Source: a virus
IMG/VR virus record: IMGVR_UViG_3300031772_004865
Span: 13,391-77,390 of that record
Strand: one strand, 5' to 3'
Length of the DNA: 64,000 nt
Position 1 is the stretch's first letter. Every line of letters begins with the position of its first letter. Shown here piece after piece: positions 27,174 to 63,224 of this stretch. Both the position numbers and the translations under genes were made by a program. The notes under the pieces were generated by a model. It did not search any database and was not told the origin of the DNA. It was given only the letters and a program-made list of their open reading frames with translations.

Positions 27174-27224
27174 CTATATACTATTAACGGAATTTTTGGC
27201 ATTTTGTAACATTTATTTTTGTAT
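27174..27224 (-). promoter_or_regulatory. Putative phage-sigma promoter, copy 1
   Basis: ATACAAAAATAAATGTTACAAAA-N9-TTCCGTTAATAGTATATAG; same as 45762-45812 outside the spacer; overlaps the sigma gene stop. Confidence 0.75.
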
Positions 27225-27809
27225 CTTTTCTCTAATCCTTGCAACTATTCGAGATATAGTCATTTTTGTAACACCTAATTCTTCACCTATTTCCTCGTAA
27301 CTAAGATTTAAGTTGCCTTGCTTTAAATTCCAAACTTCTTGTTCAATTTCTGTTAATTCAGGATAAAATTCTATTTTTACTTCTTCAGGAGTAGATATAT
27401 TGTCTGCAATATTTACTTCTTCTTCTCCTTCATCATTTTCTACTGTCTTATAAATTGATTGTGTTTTAAAATGTTTATAAAATTCCATATCCATAAATTT
27501 TGGTTGCCAATGTTGTTGTTCAAATCGACTATTTAGATAATGAGAAAATGGTGCTTTTGGTTTGAAATCATTTATCCATTCAATTATTTCTAAACTTAAT
27601 TGTTGAATTACATCATCTAATTCAACTTGTTTGGTATCTACTAATCTAAATTCAATACCTTGATATTTAAAACTTTGTTCAAAAAATACATACTTTGCTT
27701 TTTCCACAATAGTTGGATAAAGTATTTTAAAAATCTGGTCTAAAATCTTTTTATCCTTTTTCTTTTTATATTGTTTTACTAATTGGTCTAATTCATTCAG
27801 TTTTTCCAT
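27213..27809 (-). CDS. Phage sigma70/ECF-like sigma factor
   Basis: Region 2-like DDVIQ...F.P..PFSHY and region 4 HTH LTEIEQEV...LSYEEIGEELGVTKMTISR. Confidence 0.8.
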   Translation of the reverse strand: MEKLNELDQLVKQYKKKKDKKILDQIFKILYPTIVEKAKYVFFEQSFKYQGIEFRLVDTKQVELDDVIQQLSLEIIEWINDFKPKAPFSHYLNSRFEQQHWQPKFMDMEFYKHFKTQSIYKTVENDEGEEEVNIADNISTPEEVKIEFYPELTEIEQEVWNLKQGNLNLSYEEIGEELGVTKMTISRIVARIREKIQK

Positions 27810-43205: not shown

Positions 43206-44597
43206 GGTTATTTTATTTATTATTTTTATGCGCTTAAATAAATTGACTATCTCTACCTTACCTATATTATATATAACGCCTTTATAATGCCTCTTAATAT
43301 GCCTTAACGCCTCGCTTATGCTATGGCTCTTTAAATAACCTTTACTATCTTGGCTTATATTATATAATTGACTTGGCTCTATCTCTACTATATACAAAAA
43401 TTTACTACCTCTTAATAACGCCTCTGGCTCTGGCTTGGTATAATAAAACGCCCTCTTTACATTAGTTATATTTTTATCATTAGAAGTAAAATAATTACTA
43501 CCATAAAAATCTGGCTTAATATAATCCTTTATATCTGTATTGCTATAATGATAAAGTTTAATCAATTTATACCTCTACTTTTTAAATATACTATATCCTG
43601 CCTCTGTAATTAAATCTCTTATATCTTGCGGAATATAACTTAATAAATTTATATCTGCCTCTATAATAGATATAACTTCTTTTATTGCTTGTCTACATTT
43701 AAAAGAATACTTATCCCCAAATAAATTATAATAAGGGTTATCTTTTAAGGTTATATCTTTAAAATCCTTGTTATCCCTTATAATTTTTATTGCTTCTCTT
43801 AAATCTTTTATATTAATCATTTTATCCCCTCTTATTTATAAAATATTTCTTTAAAATACCTGTTACCCTCTTTATATATAGTAACTCCACCGTATACGCT
43901 TAACGCCTCTTTAATCTCGGCTCTTAAATTACTTCTTAAAACCTCTTTATAAATTCGGTTCGGCAATACTTCAATTTTATCTTGCTCATAGAATATAAAT
44001 CCCTTGCCTTGCTCTTTATAATGTCCAGAGATAAAAAATAATGCCTCTTGCTTATGCCAATGTTTTAAGAATTGTAATTCTTTTAAGGCATAAGAATTGT
44101 TTTGTCCTTGCCCGTAAATAAATCTTAAAGGTAATACTTTTAAATAATCATAGTAAATCTTATTGGTATTTTTAGAATACCAAAAACCTCTTGCTTTAGT
44201 TTTACCTTGTGTTTTATCTTGTGGGATAAATACTTTAATCATTTTAATCGCCCTCTTTTAATGCGCCTTTGCTATAATATAATTGGCTCTCCAATTCTCT
44301 ACCTCTTAACCAATTAACCGCTAATTTATTAAGTGCTGTATTCTCTGCCTCTTTATCATTTAAAATGTTACCTAAATAAACAGACTTATGTTTTAATAAA
44401 TGCGCTTGATTAGTTCCCTCTAAAATAAATAATTGACTGTCAATAAATAATCCTGCTTCAATAATATCTTGCGGATTATAACCTCTTGCCCTTGCAAGTT
44501 CCCAATGGTGTAGAGTATCGCTTTTAAAATGTTTTAGGTCTTTAGTTATAATGTATTTTAATTCTCTCATTTTATCCCCTCTCTTAACTTCTAATTA

Positions 44598-44626
44598 AGT
44601 ATAACATAAATAAAACCAAATGTCAA
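44598..44626 (-). promoter_or_regulatory. First early sigma70 promoter
   Basis: TTGACA-N17-TATACT, extended -10 TG, directly upstream of the first leftward gene. Confidence 0.9.
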
Positions 44627-45172
44627 GGTAAAATAATAAAATAAATTAACCTCTATAACTAATAAAAAATCTATGGTATAATACTATAAATAAAATGCCT
44701 ATAATAAAAAATAAATACTTGCTTGCTGGCGCAATTTATAAACGCCAAAAATATACCTTAAAAAACCGCTTTAGTTATAATACTAAATTATAAAACTACT
44801 ACCTCATAAATAACTATAACTTATTATAAATAAATAAGTTATAATCAACGGGTGGGGTTAGGATTAGCAAAAAAGGTCTTTTTGGCTCGGAAGATACCGA
44901 CTGTAGGAAACTATCGATTTAATAAAATATATCTCTTTTCGCCCCAATCATTTATATTTATTTTCCCCCATTATATTTCATTATTATTAAATCTATCTTA
45001 TCGGTGATTATTATATTCTATTATTTTTAATATAACATTTTGAATTTATTATAGTTAAATATTAAATATGGTAAAATCCCTTCGGTGAAATGCTCATGAG
45101 GGGCTCGGAGCCTGGTCGGTGGGTTATTTTTAGCAAAGATACTATAAGATAGTATTTAATTATCTTATTTTA

Positions 45173-45452
45173 TCTACCTTATTGAAATCATTAGAGTTAA
45201 GTCATTTCTACCTCAATCTTATTAGTTTCTACCCTATTATATATAGGTAAGGAGAATTAGTAAAGGACTAAATTATACTTTCTACCTACTTCTACCTTAT
45301 TTAGGGTAGATACTAAATTAGCAATCTACCATTTCTACCTTTTAGAATCTACTCTATCTACCATTATTAATACCAATAGGTTATGATTTCTATCTTAATA
45401 TCTACTAATTTATACCTATTCTTCTTTGCTTATTCTACTTTAGAAAGGTAGA
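45173..45452. repeat. TCTACC iteron-like repeat cluster
   Basis: TCTACC at 45173, 45207, 45228, 45281, 45291, 45325, 45334, 45357; inverted GGTAGA at 45305, 45447; TCTACT at 45348, 45401, 45434. Confidence 0.75.
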
Positions 45453-45545
45453 TGTCGTGCCGAGATGCTTCCTCCCAACCCTCCTTCATTTTACCATAAG
45501 ATTTAAGATTGATTTATTCAGGAAGAAATACATGGTAAGAGTAAG

Positions 45546-45597
45546 GCGTAAAAGTTAGTTTTAGAACTTTTACGCTGTTACTTACGAAGTAAGTAAC
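45546..45597. repeat. Two adjacent perfect inverted repeats
   Basis: GCGTAAAAGTT-N8-AACTTTTACGC and GTTACTTAC-GAA-GTAAGTAAC. Confidence 0.85.
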
Positions 45598-45761
45598 TAA
45601 TAACTTAGATAGATAATGATAAGATAGGGGGTATGGGGGGAAGAGAAGAAGAAGGAAGAGAGAATTTCTTCATTAGAATGGTTTATTTTTTAGGCTAATA
45701 TGGCAATTATTTAAAATATTTATAGGAGTATTTGTAATCTATTAGTATTATTATAGATAGA

Positions 45762-45812
45762 ATACAAAAATAAATGTTACAAAAAAGGAATTTTTCCGTT
45801 AATAGTATATAG
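45762..45812 (+). promoter_or_regulatory. Putative phage-sigma (late) promoter, copy 2
   Basis: Same 23+19 nt bipartite motif as 27174-27224; heads the structural arm. Confidence 0.75.
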
Positions 45813-46446
45813 GGGCAGTTAATGCTTCAATGCCAATAATAATCCGAAAAGGAAAAAGGGGTTCACAGCGAATACTTGCTCCTAAATGTAGTTAAGATAT
45901 TGGGTTATGTCTTTTTACCTGCTATTTTTATTGGCAGACAAGTCATCCTATAAGGTTATTGGATTGGGGTTTCCTGGTCGACTTATAGTGATGTAACTAT
46001 GGGTGCTTACTGATTATCGGGAGGCACCCGATTGATACTTCCTCCTAATTTGACTGCTTATTTAGCGATAAGCCTCGAATTAGGTTATTTATGACCTCGA
46101 AAGGTGAGTCGTGTCTATCTGGTTGCAACCAGGACAAGCCGAGTAGAAAAGATAAGGATTATCGTATAGACTAGAATGGTTTAGCTAACTATTTAATAAG
46201 ATAATCCAATTAATTTTCAACCAGCTTATTATCAAACGATAGTAAGTCTAAAGCTCAAGATAAAGTTCGAAAGGATTTTGTTTTGGGCTTTTTTATTTTA
46301 TAGGGTTAAGGGAATTTTACCTCTTCCATAAATTGTAAGTTTAAAATGGGAACTTATTAACCCTACCACAAATCCTGCTTCCGTAGCCAGCCATAAAGTT
46401 GATATGCATAATATCCGCAGCAGGTAAAACTTTTTTATTATTGTGG
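45810..46446 (+). ncRNA. Large structured non-coding RNA candidate (class unknown)
   Basis: More than 10 helices with G.U pairs, crossing pairings and a GAAA tetraloop; begins at the promoter; no ORF. Confidence 0.65.
46250..46298 (+). terminator. Intrinsic terminator-like hairpin
   Basis: AAGCTCAAGATAAAGTTC-GAAA-GGATTTTGTTTTGGGCTT plus T run. Confidence 0.65.
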
Positions 46447-46454
46447 AAAATCAA

Positions 46455-46598
46455 ATGATTAAAAAATATGATTTTATAGATAGAATAATTTATTTAATTA
46501 AAAAAGAATTAGAAAAATCTCTTTCCGAAGAAGATACACTTGAAGAGATGAATAGATGTTTAGAAAAAACTTTAAATAAAATAGTAAGGGGAAAATAA
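46455..46598 (+). CDS. Small hypothetical protein (47 aa)
   Basis: MIKKYDFIDR...IVRGK; ends 2 nt before the next gene. Confidence 0.45.
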   Translation: MIKKYDFIDRIIYLIKKELEKSLSEEDTLEEMNRCLEKTLNKIVRGK

Positions 46599-46600
46599 AA

Positions 46601-46963
46601 ATGTTAGAATCAACTAATTTAATTATTAAACGAGGAGATTCTTGGAGTAGAACAATCTATTTCGAAGACGAATATAATGCTAGAATAAATATAACAGGGT
46701 GGATTATTTATTTTTTAATAAAAGTGAAAATAGACGATTTAGATAATGCTACTGATGTAATTCCAGCAACAGTAACTTTTTCTAATCCTATCGATGGAGA
46801 AGCTACAATACAATTAACTTCGACACAGACAAATGTTTTAGGTAATCGTTTATTTGGAATAAAAGTTATTACTGATAAAATGATAGGAATTACAAAAGAA
46901 GCGATTACTGTTTTGGAAGGTACTATTGTATTTACTGACCGAGTAGTCCAGGCGGTGTCCTAA
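46601..46963 (+). CDS. BppU-like adaptor (baseplate/fibre attachment) protein
   Basis: IKRGDS...INITG..I.F.IK...G...I.LT..QT pattern. Confidence 0.65.
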   Translation: MLESTNLIIKRGDSWSRTIYFEDEYNARINITGWIIYFLIKVKIDDLDNATDVIPATVTFSNPIDGEATIQLTSTQTNVLGNRLFGIKVITDKMIGITKEAITVLEGTIVFTDRVVQAVS

Positions 46964-47280: not shown

Positions 47281-47928
<648 letters not shown>

Positions 47929-50624: not shown

Positions 50625-51198
50625 AAAAGGCAAAAATAATTCAAATTATAAAGACGGTAGAACATTAAAAAAACATTATTGCATAGTTTGTAAAATAAAT
50701 GAAATAACTTATCATACTTGGCTTCTTGGAAATAAGACTTGTCTTCATTGTTGCAAAATAGGTGATAACAATCCGAATTATAAAAATGGAGATACTTTAA
50801 AAAAATACTACTGTAAAGAATGTGGAAAAGAAATAAGTTTAAATAATGCACTAGATGGTTTAGGAAGATGCCCTTCTTGTTCTAAAGTGGGAGATAAAAA
50901 TGGTAATTGGAATAACGGTTCTTCTTTTGAACCTTATTCTATTGAATTTACTGAAGAATTACGAGAACAGATTCGCAAGAGAGACAATTATATTTGTCAA
51001 AATTGTTCTATGACGGAAGAAGAGCATTTAATAGTAGTGGGTAAAGTATTATCTATTCATCATATCGATTATAACAAAAAAAATTGCGAAGAAGATAATC
51101 TTATAACAATATGTTTATCTTGTAATTCAAGAGTAAATTTTAATAAAGAACATTGGCAAGAATTTTATACTAAATTATTAATAAATAAATATGATTAA
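50614..51198 (+). CDS. Zn-ribbon-array HNH endonuclease
   Basis: CQNCSMTEEEHL...HHIDYNKKNC. Confidence 0.85.
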   Translation: MKNKKGKNNSNYKDGRTLKKHYCIVCKINEITYHTWLLGNKTCLHCCKIGDNNPNYKNGDTLKKYYCKECGKEISLNNALDGLGRCPSCSKVGDKNGNWNNGSSFEPYSIEFTEELREQIRKRDNYICQNCSMTEEEHLIVVGKVLSIHHIDYNKKNCEEDNLITICLSCNSRVNFNKEHWQEFYTKLLINKYD

Positions 51199-52834
51199 AA
51201 ATTTAACTGAAGAAGAACAATTTTTTGTAGAATGTTTTTATAATGCTCGTTGCTTAGTCGAATCTACTTTTAGTAAAGGAACGCCACGCAACTGGAATGA
51301 CTTTAAGCCATGTATTAAACTAAGAATTTACCAACGCCCTTTTTTAGGTTTCGATTCTGCGATAGAAGATGATGACCGATTATCAGAAGTTGAAAATTTT
51401 CGTAGAAGAATTGAATTAGGAACCAGAATTATTATTTGTGCAAGAAAAATAGGAAAAACATTTATTGCTTTGGTTGCTAATATTTTATTAAAATTAATTC
51501 ATTATAAAGATAAAGAAATGACTTTGGCTTCATACGATGAGAAACATGTTAATAAAGTATTAGATGATGTTAAGGAATTTTTTGTTTATCATAATTTTTA
51601 TAAAATTTATAAACAAACAACCAGAGGCAGTCCAGAATATTTAATAGAAACAAAAAATGGTAATAAACTTTTTGGTATAAATGAAACCGTTAAAGGAAAA
51701 TCCCCTGGAGAAAATTGGTGGGGACATCATACTTTTATTAATTTTCAGGATGAAATTCAAGCAGAAACAGAAACAGCTTATTCTCATAAAATAGATGCAA
51801 CTAGTGATTTTGGAGTAATGGAAATTTTATGTGGAATTCCTCTTATTACTAAAGTATCTCCTTTAGGAAGAACTATAAGAGATAGAAATAACAAAAAAAG
51901 TTTAATTAGATTACCCCAATATGTTAGTCATCTTTGGGATGATAAAACTAAAGAAAGTAGAATTAGAGATTATGGAGGTCAAGAATCTGCTGGTTACAGA
52001 ATAAATGTTGCTGCTGATTTAATTGAAGGAGCTTCAGGGGCTTTCGATATGGATAGGGTTAAAACTAATTATAATAAGAAAAGAATAACAAAAAGATTTG
52101 AAGTTACCAAAAAAACTTTTAAAGATTTCAAATCTTTCTTAATTATAGAACCAATTATTAATGCCGATAGAATTTATGTGGTATCCGATATTGGAGATTC
52201 TGCTGCAACTGAAATTAATGTAATTGCTAAAATAAATAATAAGTATCATTTAATTTATAATATAACTACTTATAAATTATCTTTGACTCAAGAATTACCC
52301 GATGTAATGGAATGGATTTTTAGAAGAGTTAAAGGAAATTTTTTGAGTGTAGACTGCACAATTATGGGAAAACCAGTCTATGAAATTTTAAGTAAAAGAT
52401 TAAATGAAATAATTAAAGATGAAAAAGAAAATGTAGTAAAAGTTATTAAAAGAGTTTTTTGGTGTGCATTTAATGAGGACATAGTTACTGGTTTCGAGAA
52501 AGACGATAATAATAAAACTATTAGAGATAATAAAGGCAATGCTACCGAAAAAAAAGAAAATACACTAATTTTTTCTGTTAGAAGATTAAATGAATTATTT
52601 TATGATAGGAAATTTGATATACCAGACGACGATTATAAATTTGATAATCAATTTGCTTCTTATGTAAGTACTATTTCAGGAAGTAGAATAGTTTATGGGT
52701 CTACTACTGAAGACCATTATGTACAGGCATTTCAAGTATTCGCAATCTTAGAATGGATGACAGAACAATTGCCGACATTAAATCCTATGTTAGAAAAACA
52801 AAGTCCACCAATGGGGCTTTTTCAAGGATTATAA
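51191..52834 (+). CDS. terL: Terminase large subunit
   Basis: YQ, Walker A ARKIGKT, Walker B FQDE, RNase H-fold nuclease SDIG...VD...DH. Confidence 0.8.
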   Translation: MIKNLTEEEQFFVECFYNARCLVESTFSKGTPRNWNDFKPCIKLRIYQRPFLGFDSAIEDDDRLSEVENFRRRIELGTRIIICARKIGKTFIALVANILLKLIHYKDKEMTLASYDEKHVNKVLDDVKEFFVYHNFYKIYKQTTRGSPEYLIETKNGNKLFGINETVKGKSPGENWWGHHTFINFQDEIQAETETAYSHKIDATSDFGVMEILCGIPLITKVSPLGRTIRDRNNKKSLIRLPQYVSHLWDDKTKESRIRDYGGQESAGYRINVAADLIEGASGAFDMDRVKTNYNKKRITKRFEVTKKTFKDFKSFLIIEPIINADRIYVVSDIGDSAATEINVIAKINNKYHLIYNITTYKLSLTQELPDVMEWIFRRVKGNFLSVDCTIMGKPVYEILSKRLNEIIKDEKENVVKVIKRVFWCAFNEDIVTGFEKDDNNKTIRDNKGNATEKKENTLIFSVRRLNELFYDRKFDIPDDDYKFDNQFASYVSTISGSRIVYGSTTEDHYVQAFQVFAILEWMTEQLPTLNPMLEKQSPPMGLFQGL

Positions 52835-56945: not shown

Positions 56946-56989
56946 AATATAAAAAGATAAGTAACAAAATTTTTTAGGAGGATACAAAC

Positions 56990-57934
56990 ATGGCTGACAG
57001 ACCTACAATTGAAATAGCAAGAATTATAGGTTCCCCTATTGATGTTAATTTTCCTGTTCCTGCTGACTTAGTAGAAATTTGTAACATCGAACCTGTACTT
57101 CCAGTTGGAGAAAGAGTTTATACTTTCGTTCCTGATGATTCTAATGGTGTGGATACTATTTATACTTCTGGTTCAGAAGGACAGATAGTTCCAATTAAAG
57201 TAGGATTGGGTAATGTAACTGAAATTTTCCTTTCCTATATACAGTCAAAGTTAGAGTATGTATTGGTTCAGGAATTAGCAGAATCTCCCGACCAAGGTGC
57301 TTTAGCAAGACGTAAAGTTTCTATTTCTAGAGCTATGGATAAAATAGAGTTAAAAAGAGCATTAGACTTGATTTTAGCTCTTAACGGTGCTACAGGTATT
57401 CCAGACCAGTCAGTTATTAGAACAACTGGTGAGGACATCTGGGATTTAATCGTTGCTATGGTTCGTAAAGTTGAAAATTACGGTACTGACTATGTACTTT
57501 TAGCTGGTACTACTGCAAACGCAGAAATTGAAGATTATGATAAAGCCCAGGTTGGTAATTTTAATTACAAAATGGGAATTAGTGAAATGTTAGCAGAAAA
57601 AGGTATTAAAAAAATAAAGATACTTGGAAACATCAAGTTAGATAGTGGTTCTGATTTACCTATTTTAGCTGTTAATAAAATGATTTTGGTTGCTAGAAAT
57701 TCTAATCTACTTGGTGGAAAACCAATCGCCTTCGTTAGACGACAGATTAGAGATTTAGTTGCCAATGCTGGTGGAACAGTTGATGTAAAAGAAAGAGCAT
57801 TATATGTTGCTGAAACTCCTACACCTTTGTATTCTGGTACTACATTAACCCACGGATATGGTCTCTTTGGATTTGAGTCTCTTGTAGAGGCAATCTTGAA
57901 CTACAGGGCAGTTTGTTGGGCTGCAACATCATAA
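56990..57934 (+). CDS. Major capsid protein (probable HK97 fold)
   Basis: Follows the scaffold; strong RBS; 314 aa; hairpin downstream. Confidence 0.7.
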   Translation: MADRPTIEIARIIGSPIDVNFPVPADLVEICNIEPVLPVGERVYTFVPDDSNGVDTIYTSGSEGQIVPIKVGLGNVTEIFLSYIQSKLEYVLVQELAESPDQGALARRKVSISRAMDKIELKRALDLILALNGATGIPDQSVIRTTGEDIWDLIVAMVRKVENYGTDYVLLAGTTANAEIEDYDKAQVGNFNYKMGISEMLAEKGIKKIKILGNIKLDSGSDLPILAVNKMILVARNSNLLGGKPIAFVRRQIRDLVANAGGTVDVKERALYVAETPTPLYSGTTLTHGYGLFGFESLVEAILNYRAVCWAATS

Positions 57935-58004
57935 TTTTAATTTGATTAAAAGGAAGAGGTCAATTTGACCTCCTCCCCACAAAAATTAATCAGAAAGGAA
58001 TTAT

Positions 58005-61688: not shown

Positions 61689-61888
61689 ATAAAAAAACTA
61701 ATGATAAAGATAGAAATTATTGAATTAAGTATTTCCAAGATAAAATAATTAGTAAGGTAATTGAAATAAAAAAGATAACTTAGTAAGGAATAAGATAATA
61801 TCTGTTTTTAGGGCTATGAAGAGTCCAAAAACCAAAAACAGAGGGCTTATGAAGAGCCTAAAACAAAATTTTTTAGGAGGATACAAAT

Positions 61889-63142
61889 ATGGATAGTATG
61901 ATACATGCGAAACTTTGTCAACCACGTATTTTTCCACAAAATAGTGCGAGACAACCTGAACAAATTAATCGAGCCCAGGACATCGGTGGAGACCTAACGC
62001 TTTCTCAAGATAAACTTTTTGAAATAGGTAGAGATGGAAAATTAGGAGTAAAGAAAAATATTCCTACATTAGCTTATCCTTTAACTCAGTATGAATATGG
62101 GTCAATGGATTTTTGGTATGCTTTAGCCAATGTAATAAATCCTGTAACAGGAGCCGATAAATTTATTGAGTTAGATGATTTAACTACTACAATGGTAGAA
62201 ATTTCTGCTTATTTAACGGATGAGGATAATATTTTTAAGGGAACTATTTGGTTTCCTAAATTAAGAGTTGCTGGATTTTCTTTAAATATTGGAGACCCAA
62301 ATGCTGCAGTTCAGAGAAAGTTTGATTTAGTTGGTGAAGATTTTAAAATTTTACCTACAAAGTATTTTGCTTATGCAGAAGGTACAGTTGGAGTATTAGG
62401 AACAGGAGTAGATTATACTCTTCATTTTGGTGCAACTGGAGAAGCCCCTATACCTATTGCTTATTCTGCTACTGAATACATTTTCAAAGTATTAAGAATT
62501 AGAAGTGGAATATGTACTGAATTAGTAGAAACTTTAGATTGGAGTTATTCCGACGGTACAAAATTATTAACAGTATTGAATTGTTTGACAAGTGATTTAA
62601 TAAAGGTTTATTATGAAGCTGCGACTGCTTATGCAACTTTATGGGCAGATAACAATACTGACCCAGATGCTTTATTTGCAGAAGATTGTGTAATTTACAT
62701 GAAATGCGGTAATGGTACTGAATCAAAGATTTATCTTTTACAAAGTGTTGGAATTGATGTGGCTTTGGAAAGAGATGATAAGAAACAAATTGGCAGTACA
62801 GAAGTAGCTCAGACAGGTGTAAAAGGTAAAACAGTAACAGTAAAATTAGATAGATTTAATGCTGGTTTTTCACTTGAAACTCTTTTGGCATCTGATACAG
62901 TTTATCCTTATATTAACCCAAGAGATTTTAGTGATGAAATTCAGTTGAGAGTTGAGATTTACAAAAAGGTATCGGGGGTGGCTGTCTTTGCTATGGGATA
63001 CCTAATTACAGGATTATCTCCTACTGCTCTCGGAACTAGCCAGGCTATAGAAGACTACAACAAGGTAACTAACAGTTTAGAGTCAGATAATTTGAAGATT
63101 TCTTCTGACCTTACTGAATTAGCATTTATTACAATACCATAA
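61889..63142 (+). CDS. Major tail tube-like protein
   Basis: Same leader as the capsid gene; beta-rich with two E.(I)G repeats; follows the neck module. Confidence 0.6.
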   Translation: MDSMIHAKLCQPRIFPQNSARQPEQINRAQDIGGDLTLSQDKLFEIGRDGKLGVKKNIPTLAYPLTQYEYGSMDFWYALANVINPVTGADKFIELDDLTTTMVEISAYLTDEDNIFKGTIWFPKLRVAGFSLNIGDPNAAVQRKFDLVGEDFKILPTKYFAYAEGTVGVLGTGVDYTLHFGATGEAPIPIAYSATEYIFKVLRIRSGICTELVETLDWSYSDGTKLLTVLNCLTSDLIKVYYEAATAYATLWADNNTDPDALFAEDCVIYMKCGNGTESKIYLLQSVGIDVALERDDKKQIGSTEVAQTGVKGKTVTVKLDRFNAGFSLETLLASDTVYPYINPRDFSDEIQLRVEIYKKVSGVAVFAMGYLITGLSPTALGTSQAIEDYNKVTNSLESDNLKISSDLTELAFITIP

Positions 63143-63224
63143 TTAAAAAATAAGAGGGAGCACTTAATCGTCTCCCTCCCAAAAGAAATAAATTGTAAGG
63201 TAAGGAATGGAAAATAAAATTCGC

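Follow-up and report, generated by a model that had tools for sequence, protein, structure and literature searches.

We describe a structured RNA unit at the head of the virion operon of an uncultured sediment phage. The stretch of DNA analysed (the window) comprises 64,000 nucleotides (nt), bases 13391-77390 of the 77.4-kb IMG/VR virus record IMGVR_UViG_3300031772_004865, whose completeness is estimated at 69%, and has a GC content of about 28%. Its minus-strand arm ends at 44570 and encodes a family-B DNA polymerase, a Prim-Pol, RecA-like and RuvB-like proteins, and a Sigma70_r4 protein (27213-27809). The plus-strand virion genes begin at 46443/46456. Their first small open reading frame (ORF), at 46456..46598 (plus strand; 47 amino acids (aa) from its ATG), has a coding part that aligns in all relatives, and is followed by a 120-aa adaptor-like gene at 46601-46963 (plus strand; phrog_1084, 15 homologues). 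A gap of 1.9 kb that contains no ORF separates the two arms, and on the plus strand no ORF of 30 aa or more is present between 45558 and 46443. The RNA unit occupies the right-hand third of this gap, and the left part carries an iteron-like TCTACC array and AT-rich repeats.

Several sequence features of this gap lie close to the RNA unit. A TCTAC(C/T) iteron-like array extends over 45170-45450, followed by two abutting palindromes (45546-45598) and a 38-nt purine-only tract (45628-45665). The iteron part is conserved in the related phages G001 and L064, and the region, which immediately precedes the promoter of the RNA, may be a replication origin. The motif GGTAAAAY occurs 20 times in the window against 9.2 expected occurrences, with no consistent position relative to genes; five of the copies cluster within the non-coding region (44627, 45070, 45488, 46314, and 46423).

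The relatives used for comparison were collected by three routes. The terminase-like protein (51191-52834) led to four IMG/VR records, G001-G004, with 70-80% amino-acid identity; G001 is complete, and the window's own record (G000) is 69% complete. Homologues of the adaptor-like protein together with one metagenome scan provided 20 sediment contigs, and a pattern search with the 5′ domain of the RNA added one viral contig, L064. Homologous RNA units were found in nine other sediment-phage contigs, namely L045, L046, L047, L050, L054, L062, L064, G001, and, in part, G003. Neither blastn of the region nor tblastn of the terminase-like protein against GenBank phages returned anything similar, and a blastn comparison of the RNA with the four related IMG/VR records yielded short chance words only. 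An apparent 1.8-kb non-coding gap in G004 proved to be an artefact of an ORF that runs off the contig end. A look-up of sequencing runs returned 15 runs, all of sediment DNA, with no RNA run listed.

The RNA is made of constant ends and of a variable middle of hairpin cassettes that are exchanged among related phages. In the window, it extends from a conserved promoter to a terminator over about 486 nt of non-coding, plus-strand sequence ahead of the virion genes. The promoter is located at 45762..45812 (plus strand) and reads TGTTAC-N16-CGTTAA followed by TAGTATATAGGGG, with TA(A/T)TAGTATATAGGGG kept in all relatives; transcription is predicted to start at about 45808-45812. Upstream, the box TATTTGTAATCTATTAGTATTATTATAGATAG (45720..45761, plus strand) is nearly invariant in the window, L045, L046, L047, L054, and L062, and may represent either an upstream element of the promoter or a second promoter-like site in tandem. 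A direct reading of the first 25 bases predicted to be transcribed revealed no convincing -10-like repeat, such as would accompany the sigma-dependent pause near the promoter in a lambda Q-type unit.

The promoter is duplicated once in the window. The sequence at 45762-45812 recurs on the minus strand at 27224-27174, as identical 23- and 19-nt blocks around a variable spacer, and this copy, which begins at the sigma-gene stop, stands at the head of the replication/accessory arm. DNA reads mapped to the contigs revealed strain variants in a mosaic, as well as the second copy of the promoter. In G001, a different sequence stands ahead of the 5′ domain, and it too recurs once, downstream of the sigma-gene region of that phage (14040-14085 and, on the minus strand, 101440-101500). 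Each of the four relatives encodes one Sigma70_r4 protein. Within one phage the two promoters of the pair match, but those of different phages differ, which suggests that they are recognized by the sigma factor of the phage itself. The preliminary description, made from the letters of the window alone, had placed a putative phage-sigma promoter at the start of the RNA; at the level of sequence this proposal holds, with the duplicate lying behind a Sigma70_r4 gene.

The first constant part is the 5′ domain, which we refer to as domain B (45810..45886, plus strand). This is an irregular 78-nt hairpin formed by the helices 45810-19/45874-84, 45823-26/45867-70, and 45832-34/45860-62, and by an apical helix (45843-45/45851-53) that closes a GAAAA loop. 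A model of this domain (R2) matched once each in the window, L045, L046, L047, L054, L062, and L064 (74-102 bits). It also matched a diverged copy in G001 (30 bits), where GAGAAUAA/UUAUUCUC takes the place of the outer-helix sequence. In the alignment, which comprises few sequences and was fitted to the model, pairing extends to 91.7% of the cells, and compensatory changes affect 7 of 19 pairs. The loops of domain B are highly conserved, beyond the needs of pairing, and antisense matches to them are not enriched within the window. Two candidate functional motifs were examined and rejected: the boxA-like UGCUCCUAAAU forms the 3′ side of the outer helix, where it is paired and covaries without being conserved, and the segments of a potential GNRA-receptor pairing (CCUAAA with UAUGG) both belong already to conserved helices.

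The second constant part, hairpin C (45998..46039, plus strand), consists of the helix GGGUGCU/GGCACCC, a 2x2 internal loop (UA/GA), and the helix CUGA/UCGG, and is followed by CGAUUGA. Its model (R1) produced one match per phage, always inside the RNA unit, in the window, L045, L046, L047, L050, L051, L062, L064, and G003. All cells of the alignment (100%) are paired, compensatory changes affect 5 of 11 pairs, and none of 500 shuffles was as good. Both domain B and hairpin C are thus single-copy in each phage and confined to the RNA unit. Pattern searches of wider collections added little: a collection pattern recovered G003 and otherwise chance matches in coding sequence, the domain B pattern matched L064 only among viral contigs and the hairpin C pattern none of them, and the domain B core pattern gave three chance matches inside coding sequence in GTDB genomes, with no host lead.

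Between these parts and the terminator, the sequence is a mosaic of swappable hairpins, and it is for this reason that the length of the RNA varies 1.7-fold, from 295 to 499 nt. Variable block 1 (45887..45997, plus strand) contains the hairpin 45919-24/45932-37 and a composite hairpin (45941-54/45982-98, with the inner helix 45962-68/45973-79). It is common to the window, L047, L062, and L050, with the pairs kept, including a change from A-U to G-C at 45963/45978; in L045, L046, and L064, it is swapped for unrelated hairpins. Hairpin D (46044..46084, plus strand; 10 base pairs (bp) in the outer helix, 7 bp in the inner, loop UUAG) is shared with G003 only (L006:2786-2830), with compensatory changes, and is absent from the other relatives. 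Just after the G003 copy of hairpins C and D lies a 66-aa ORF (L006:3289-3489) with an AT-hook-like KRGRPVGSKN. Variable block 2 (46090..46210, plus strand) is shared with L054 only; it carries a GAAA-capped hairpin (46094-46105), a second one at 46120-31 in which a G-C pair becomes A-U at 46122/46129, and a third, long one at 46156-63/46200-07 with the inner helix 46174-81/46187-94. Other hairpins stand in its place elsewhere. In G001, a 42-aa basic ORF (MGRGRKK...; L027:14359-14487) lies between domain B and the terminator.

The last part of the middle (46211..46247, plus strand) comprises the conserved single-stranded UUUUCAACC and the hairpin 46224-33/46238-47. L045, L047, L050, and L062 all retain the UUUUUCAACC motif. 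The hairpin itself exists in two unrelated versions, as it is swapped for a different one in L047, L050, and L062, and the versions assort independently of the terminator variant. This independence rules out an alternative pairing of the attenuator type between the pre-terminator hairpin and the terminator.

The RNA ends at an intrinsic terminator (46250..46297, plus strand), with a 19-bp stem, a GAAA loop, a folding energy of -21.5 kcal/mol, and the tract UUUUUUAUUUU. A terminator scan independently picked 46250-46291 and the T run that follows. A terminator is present at the same place in every relative, always with a canonical tract of 6-8 U on the terminal hairpin. Its base, AAAGCU...AGCUUUUUUU, is conserved, and the stem above it occurs in at least four unrelated sequences. 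In L064, the ATG of the adaptor homologue (32% identity, E 3e-8) follows the U tract after only 35 nt, which include a ribosome site, and in G001 the next ribosome site comes about 12 nt after the tract. With spacing this short, neither phage has room for a promoter after the terminator.

Downstream of the terminator, the window carries a branched hairpin, UAGGGUUA/UAACCCUA, followed by ACCA (46301..46369, plus strand), which is conserved in L044, L045, and L046. The same slot holds a tRNA-Thr(UGU) in L050 (1364-1439), L051 (281-356), L054 (3077-3152), and L062 (1639-1714), 60-110 nt after the terminator. This tRNA is precisely absent in L047, and the distant L059 and L060 carry it directly before the adaptor gene. 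The hairpin of the window resembles a tRNA only in its slot and its 3′ ACCA: ARAGORN reported no tRNA in the window, and Rfam gave no tRNA match up to an E-value of 10. Next comes a small motif, H (46374..46424, plus strand), in which the stem CCUGCU/AGCAGG encloses the conserved CGUAGYCAGYC and a variable inner hairpin. The stem covaries across the window, L046, L047/L048/L050, L051/L062, and L054, and the motif is absent in L044 and L045. Motif H, which matched no Rfam family, is situated in the 5′ untranslated region, just before the ribosome site of ORF51, and outside the terminated RNA.

Folding is strand-specific and favours the plus strand, on which the preliminary description had proposed selection from the frequency of G.U pairs. 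The region 45810-46446 folds at -187.4 kcal/mol on the plus strand (z-score -6.9 against dinucleotide shuffles) and at -140.2 kcal/mol on the minus strand (z-score -2.2). The promoter-to-terminator RNA alone (45810-46296) reaches -152.6 kcal/mol with a z-score of -6.4 on the plus strand, and a z-score of -2.3 on the minus strand. Among the window and six homologues, with start-to-terminator lengths of 486, 445, 357, 464, 499, 471, and 295 nt, the respective plus-strand z-scores are -6.4, -5.7, -6.2, -5.4, -2.8, -6.8, and -4.3; the minus-strand z-scores of these seven RNAs are mostly much weaker. In sliding windows of 120 nt, the plus-strand signal peaks at 45961-46080 and 46141-46320. As for G.U pairs, the terminator alone has 5 among its 19 pairs.

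The preliminary description had listed a series of helices over 45810-46446, proposed as a candidate large ornate RNA. All nine of its local helices are present in the minimum-free-energy fold (45810-46297, and for the last of them 46296-46371). On the plus strand, these are 45810-19/45874-84, 45944-54/45982-93, 46001-07/46023-29, 46044-53/46075-84 with the inner 46056-62/46067-73, 46120-31, 46156-63/46200-07, 46224-33/46238-47, 46250-68/46273-91 (GAAA loop and U tract), and 46301-08/46358-65. Related phages conserve the structure with compensatory changes: among those pairs of the window fold that could be aligned reliably, 18 changes are compensatory, 15 are one-sided and keep the pair, and 12 pairs are broken, several of the latter at replaced hairpins or register shifts.

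The two long-distance pairings of that description are genuine complementarities, but comparison does not support them as conserved. The crossing helix 45831-39/45928-36 is a perfect 9-mer, yet its partner is lost in three relatives in which that cassette is replaced and the 5′ domain retained, and the segment 45928-36 sits in the local hairpin 45919-24/45932-37 in the fold. The match 45913-23/46419-29 is a perfect 11-mer; it is unsupported because it straddles the terminator, is not kept in L047 or L062, and competes with a conserved local stem. In this stem, 46419-24 pairs with 46374-79, and the pairing covaries in relatives (CCUGCU/AGCAGG, CCCGUU/AACGGG, and AUCUGC/GCAGAU). Likewise, the idea of a single ornate fold of 637 nt gives way to a mosaic of cassettes, whose only constant parts are the promoter, the 5′ domain, one hairpin, and the terminator. 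The 637 nt are in fact three things: a 486-nt RNA ending at 46296, the hairpin in the tRNA slot, and a separate small motif.

The RNA does not belong to a catalogued family. An Rfam cmscan of the whole window detected no family at the gathering score, a permissive scan of 44400-46700 (E-values up to 10) gave chance matches only, with E-values above 2, and a scan of ten homologous loci (E-values up to 0.1) detected tRNAs only. This agrees with the earlier statement that no class could be assigned, and it bears on the resemblance to ROOL and GOLLD that had been suggested from size and context. GOLLD and ROOL RNAs often occur near tRNAs and in prophages (PMC5737381). The contextual part of the resemblance stands, as the RNA is encoded by phages and adjoins a tRNA in L050, L051, L054, and L062, the window itself having no tRNA. 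Like GOLLD and ROOL, it is a large structured phage RNA that tolerates an internal variable region. The covariance models and the architecture speak against membership. There was no match to the ROOL model (RF03087), and the conserved parts of RNAs of 295-499 nt are domain B, hairpin C, and the terminator only; nor did the GOLLD model (RF01998) match in the window or the ten homologous loci. In place of the multi-stem junctions with pseudoknots of those families, the core consists of two hairpin domains. The 1.7-fold change in length is brought about by cassette exchange, and the RNA always heads the virion operon.

Other candidate classes were rejected as well. The T-box (RF00230) gave no Rfam match, the internal loop of hairpin C is 2x2 and not a 7-nt bulge, and hairpin C lies 210 nt from the terminator with exchangeable modules between. 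A 6S-like RNA was discarded for lack of a model match. The RNA unit is real, uncatalogued, and restricted to this clade, and is better called a modular, terminator-ended leader than a single ornate RNA.

Some further features of the window and its relatives concern the virion arm and the genes of G001. Near-identical 30-nt stretches, CAAAATTTTTTAGGAGGATACAAAYATGG, are found at 56966-56995 and 61866-61895, before two unrelated virion genes (BLASTP E-value 0.41), and look like a common strong translation-initiation context or a promoter-proximal element. Two virion genes are followed by G-rich perfect hairpins without a U tract, of the type GGAAGAGG...CCUCCUCC (57945-57975 and 63150-63185), and similar hairpins precede the tRNA in L058-L060. 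A collagen-like tail-fibre ORF (47281-47928) contains an island of 60-64% GC in a genome of about 28% GC. In G001, the family-B DNA polymerase (L030:15813-19301, minus strand) carries intein/LAGLIDADG signatures, and a 616-aa ORF (L032:3522-5372, minus strand) joins a phage-integrase domain to a LAGLIDADG-like domain.

What might such a leader do? Among the three roles raised in the preliminary description (structural, packaging, or antitermination), antitermination best fits the anatomy; nothing in the results bears on the other two. We tentatively favour, with some reserve, a long leader that acts in cis and gates the virion operon at the terminator, in the manner of the pR′-6S-tR′ region of phage lambda or of the put RNAs. 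Host RNA polymerase, probably with a phage sigma factor, would start at the promoter at 45762-45812 and normally stop at 46291-46297, releasing a discrete RNA of 486 nt. Only a polymerase made resistant to the terminator would continue into the tRNA slot and the virion genes. Resistance might be conferred by domain B or hairpin C acting directly on the polymerase, as put RNAs do, or by a phage factor bound at domain B/hairpin C, following the logic of N or Q. The read-through element is most readily sought in the conserved domain B and hairpin C, each present once per genome.

Observations in favour of this gate include the strand-specific folding, the homologous units with their compensatory changes, a terminator at the same place in every relative, the promoter duplicated once per genome in G000 and G001, the Sigma70_r4 protein of each of the four relatives, and the single copies of domain B and hairpin C. 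Two more carry most weight: the terminator abuts the first virion gene in L064 and G001, and no recognizable phage RNA polymerase was found. Regarding the latter, the RNA polymerase family PF00623 had no match in the complete relative G001, in a search in which all 14 controls gave a signal, and none of the large ORFs of G001 with a Pfam match is such a polymerase. The lack of room for a promoter in L064 and G001, together with the lack of a recognizable phage polymerase, implies that the virion arm, and in relatives the tRNA, would be read through the terminator by a polymerase of the bacterial type.

Two known systems are reminiscent of this arrangement. The late leader of phage lambda comprises the pR′ promoter, the 194-nt 6S RNA, the tR′ terminator, and the Q antiterminator. 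The RNA unit shares with it a promoter ahead of the late/virion operon, a terminated non-coding RNA, and an intrinsic terminator to be overcome, which lies between the promoter and the first late gene in all relatives. It differs in that the RNA is 300-500 nt long, dense in hairpins, and endowed with a conserved 5′ domain, that no Q-family gene (PF06530) was found, and that its apparently sigma-specific promoter has a duplicate on the other arm. The put RNAs of phage HK022 are cis-acting antiterminator RNAs of two stem-loops and about 70 nt, which act on RNA polymerase without a protein. By analogy, the conserved structured RNA of our phages, placed just after a phage promoter and before terminators with one copy per operon, could act in cis. 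When the two are compared by description, domain B is instead one irregular 78-nt hairpin at the predicted start, with hairpin C about 110 nt further on.

Several points weigh against the gate. A search for NusG/LoaP-like proteins found nothing, and no known antiterminator family was found. The Q family PF06530 (Phage_antitermQ) had no match above the cut-off in G000-G003, in a search confined to this one Q family and, for G000, to a record only 69% complete; the single match below the cut-off (15 bits) fell on the sigma-like gene of G003. The 200-400 nt of exchangeable hairpins before the terminator are far above the known needs of cis antitermination, and, as described above, there is no alternative pairing of the attenuator type. 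The window has 160 nt between the terminator and ORF51, where a separate late promoter is possible. The promoter also heads the replication/accessory arm (27174 onwards), and the RNA may be a middle-stage product with a role of its own. The 42-aa ORF of G001 means that the transcript is not always non-coding. Finally, the start, the 3′ end, and the read-through are predictions drawn from the DNA.

A stand-alone RNA that acts in trans, in the niche of GOLLD and ROOL, is an unlikely but serious alternative. The terminated RNA of 300-500 nt would then itself be the product, serving for example as a scaffold, decoy, or sponge, with the cassettes as specificity modules, and the virion genes would be expressed through leak-through or from an unrecognized promoter. 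This explanation accounts well for a unit with its own promoter and a strong, always-present terminator, for the very strong folding z-scores, and for the conservation of the domain B loops in excess of pairing. The tRNA-Thr directly downstream in L050, L051, L054, and L062 recalls the setting of GOLLD and ROOL (PMC5737381), and a promoter in common with the replication arm is not a late-only signal. It sits less easily with the lack of any Rfam match to GOLLD, ROOL, or another family even at E-values up to 10, and with a conserved core that has no multi-junction or pseudoknot and amounts to two constant hairpin domains. Moreover, the terminator abuts the first virion gene in L064 and G001, and the domain B loops have no enriched antisense matches in the window. 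The more specific proposal of a new class of large, modular, trans-acting phage RNA, adjoining tRNAs as GOLLD and ROOL do and using swappable cassettes as specificity modules, is somewhat less probable still; in such a class, the cassettes might, for example, act as decoys for proteins of the host or phage, or as docking sites for them.

It is improbable that the unit is an mRNA 5′ leader concerned with processing or stability only, through 5′ protection or through cleavage by RNase III, E, or P together with the tRNA. Under this explanation no regulatory decision would be taken, and the terminator would be a stabilizing 3′ hairpin or a processing hairpin. The unit does indeed head the virion operon in every case, on the same strand, a tRNA or the hairpin in the tRNA slot comes next, G-rich hairpins of a similar kind come after abundant virion genes (57950 and 63150), and in G001 a small ORF lies inside the unit. 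Nevertheless, every relative has the canonical 6-8 U tract, and mere stability does not need the sequence conservation seen in the domain B loops and hairpin C. Finally, a replication-linked transcript, that is, an origin-activating or primer/R-loop RNA of the adjacent iteron origin, is very improbable: the iterons (45170-45450), the purine-only tract (45628-45665), and the palindromes directly precede the promoter, with conservation in G001 and L064, and the promoter is shared with the arm of the replication genes, but transcription runs away from the iterons, the purine tract is upstream of the predicted start, and we know of no R-loop primer, such as those of ColE1 and the T4 origins, with a defined terminator or conserved RNA hairpins.

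Whichever of these explanations applies, the comparison yields concrete features: an exchange of modules between fixed ends, a once-per-genome hairpin C with five compensatory pairs, and paired promoters specific to each phage. A new RNA family entry could be built from the models R1 and R2. Should the RNA act in trans, a new family would join the few large phage RNAs of unknown function that occur beside tRNAs, and if the modular class is real, cassette exchange inside one structured RNA would be a new mode of phage RNA evolution. If instead the cis-acting gate is correct, a clade of uncultured sediment phages would time the expression of its virion genes by means of an unusually long modular leader and a promoter of the phage-sigma type, with no known antiterminator, which would point to an undescribed antitermination partner or to an RNA-only mechanism.

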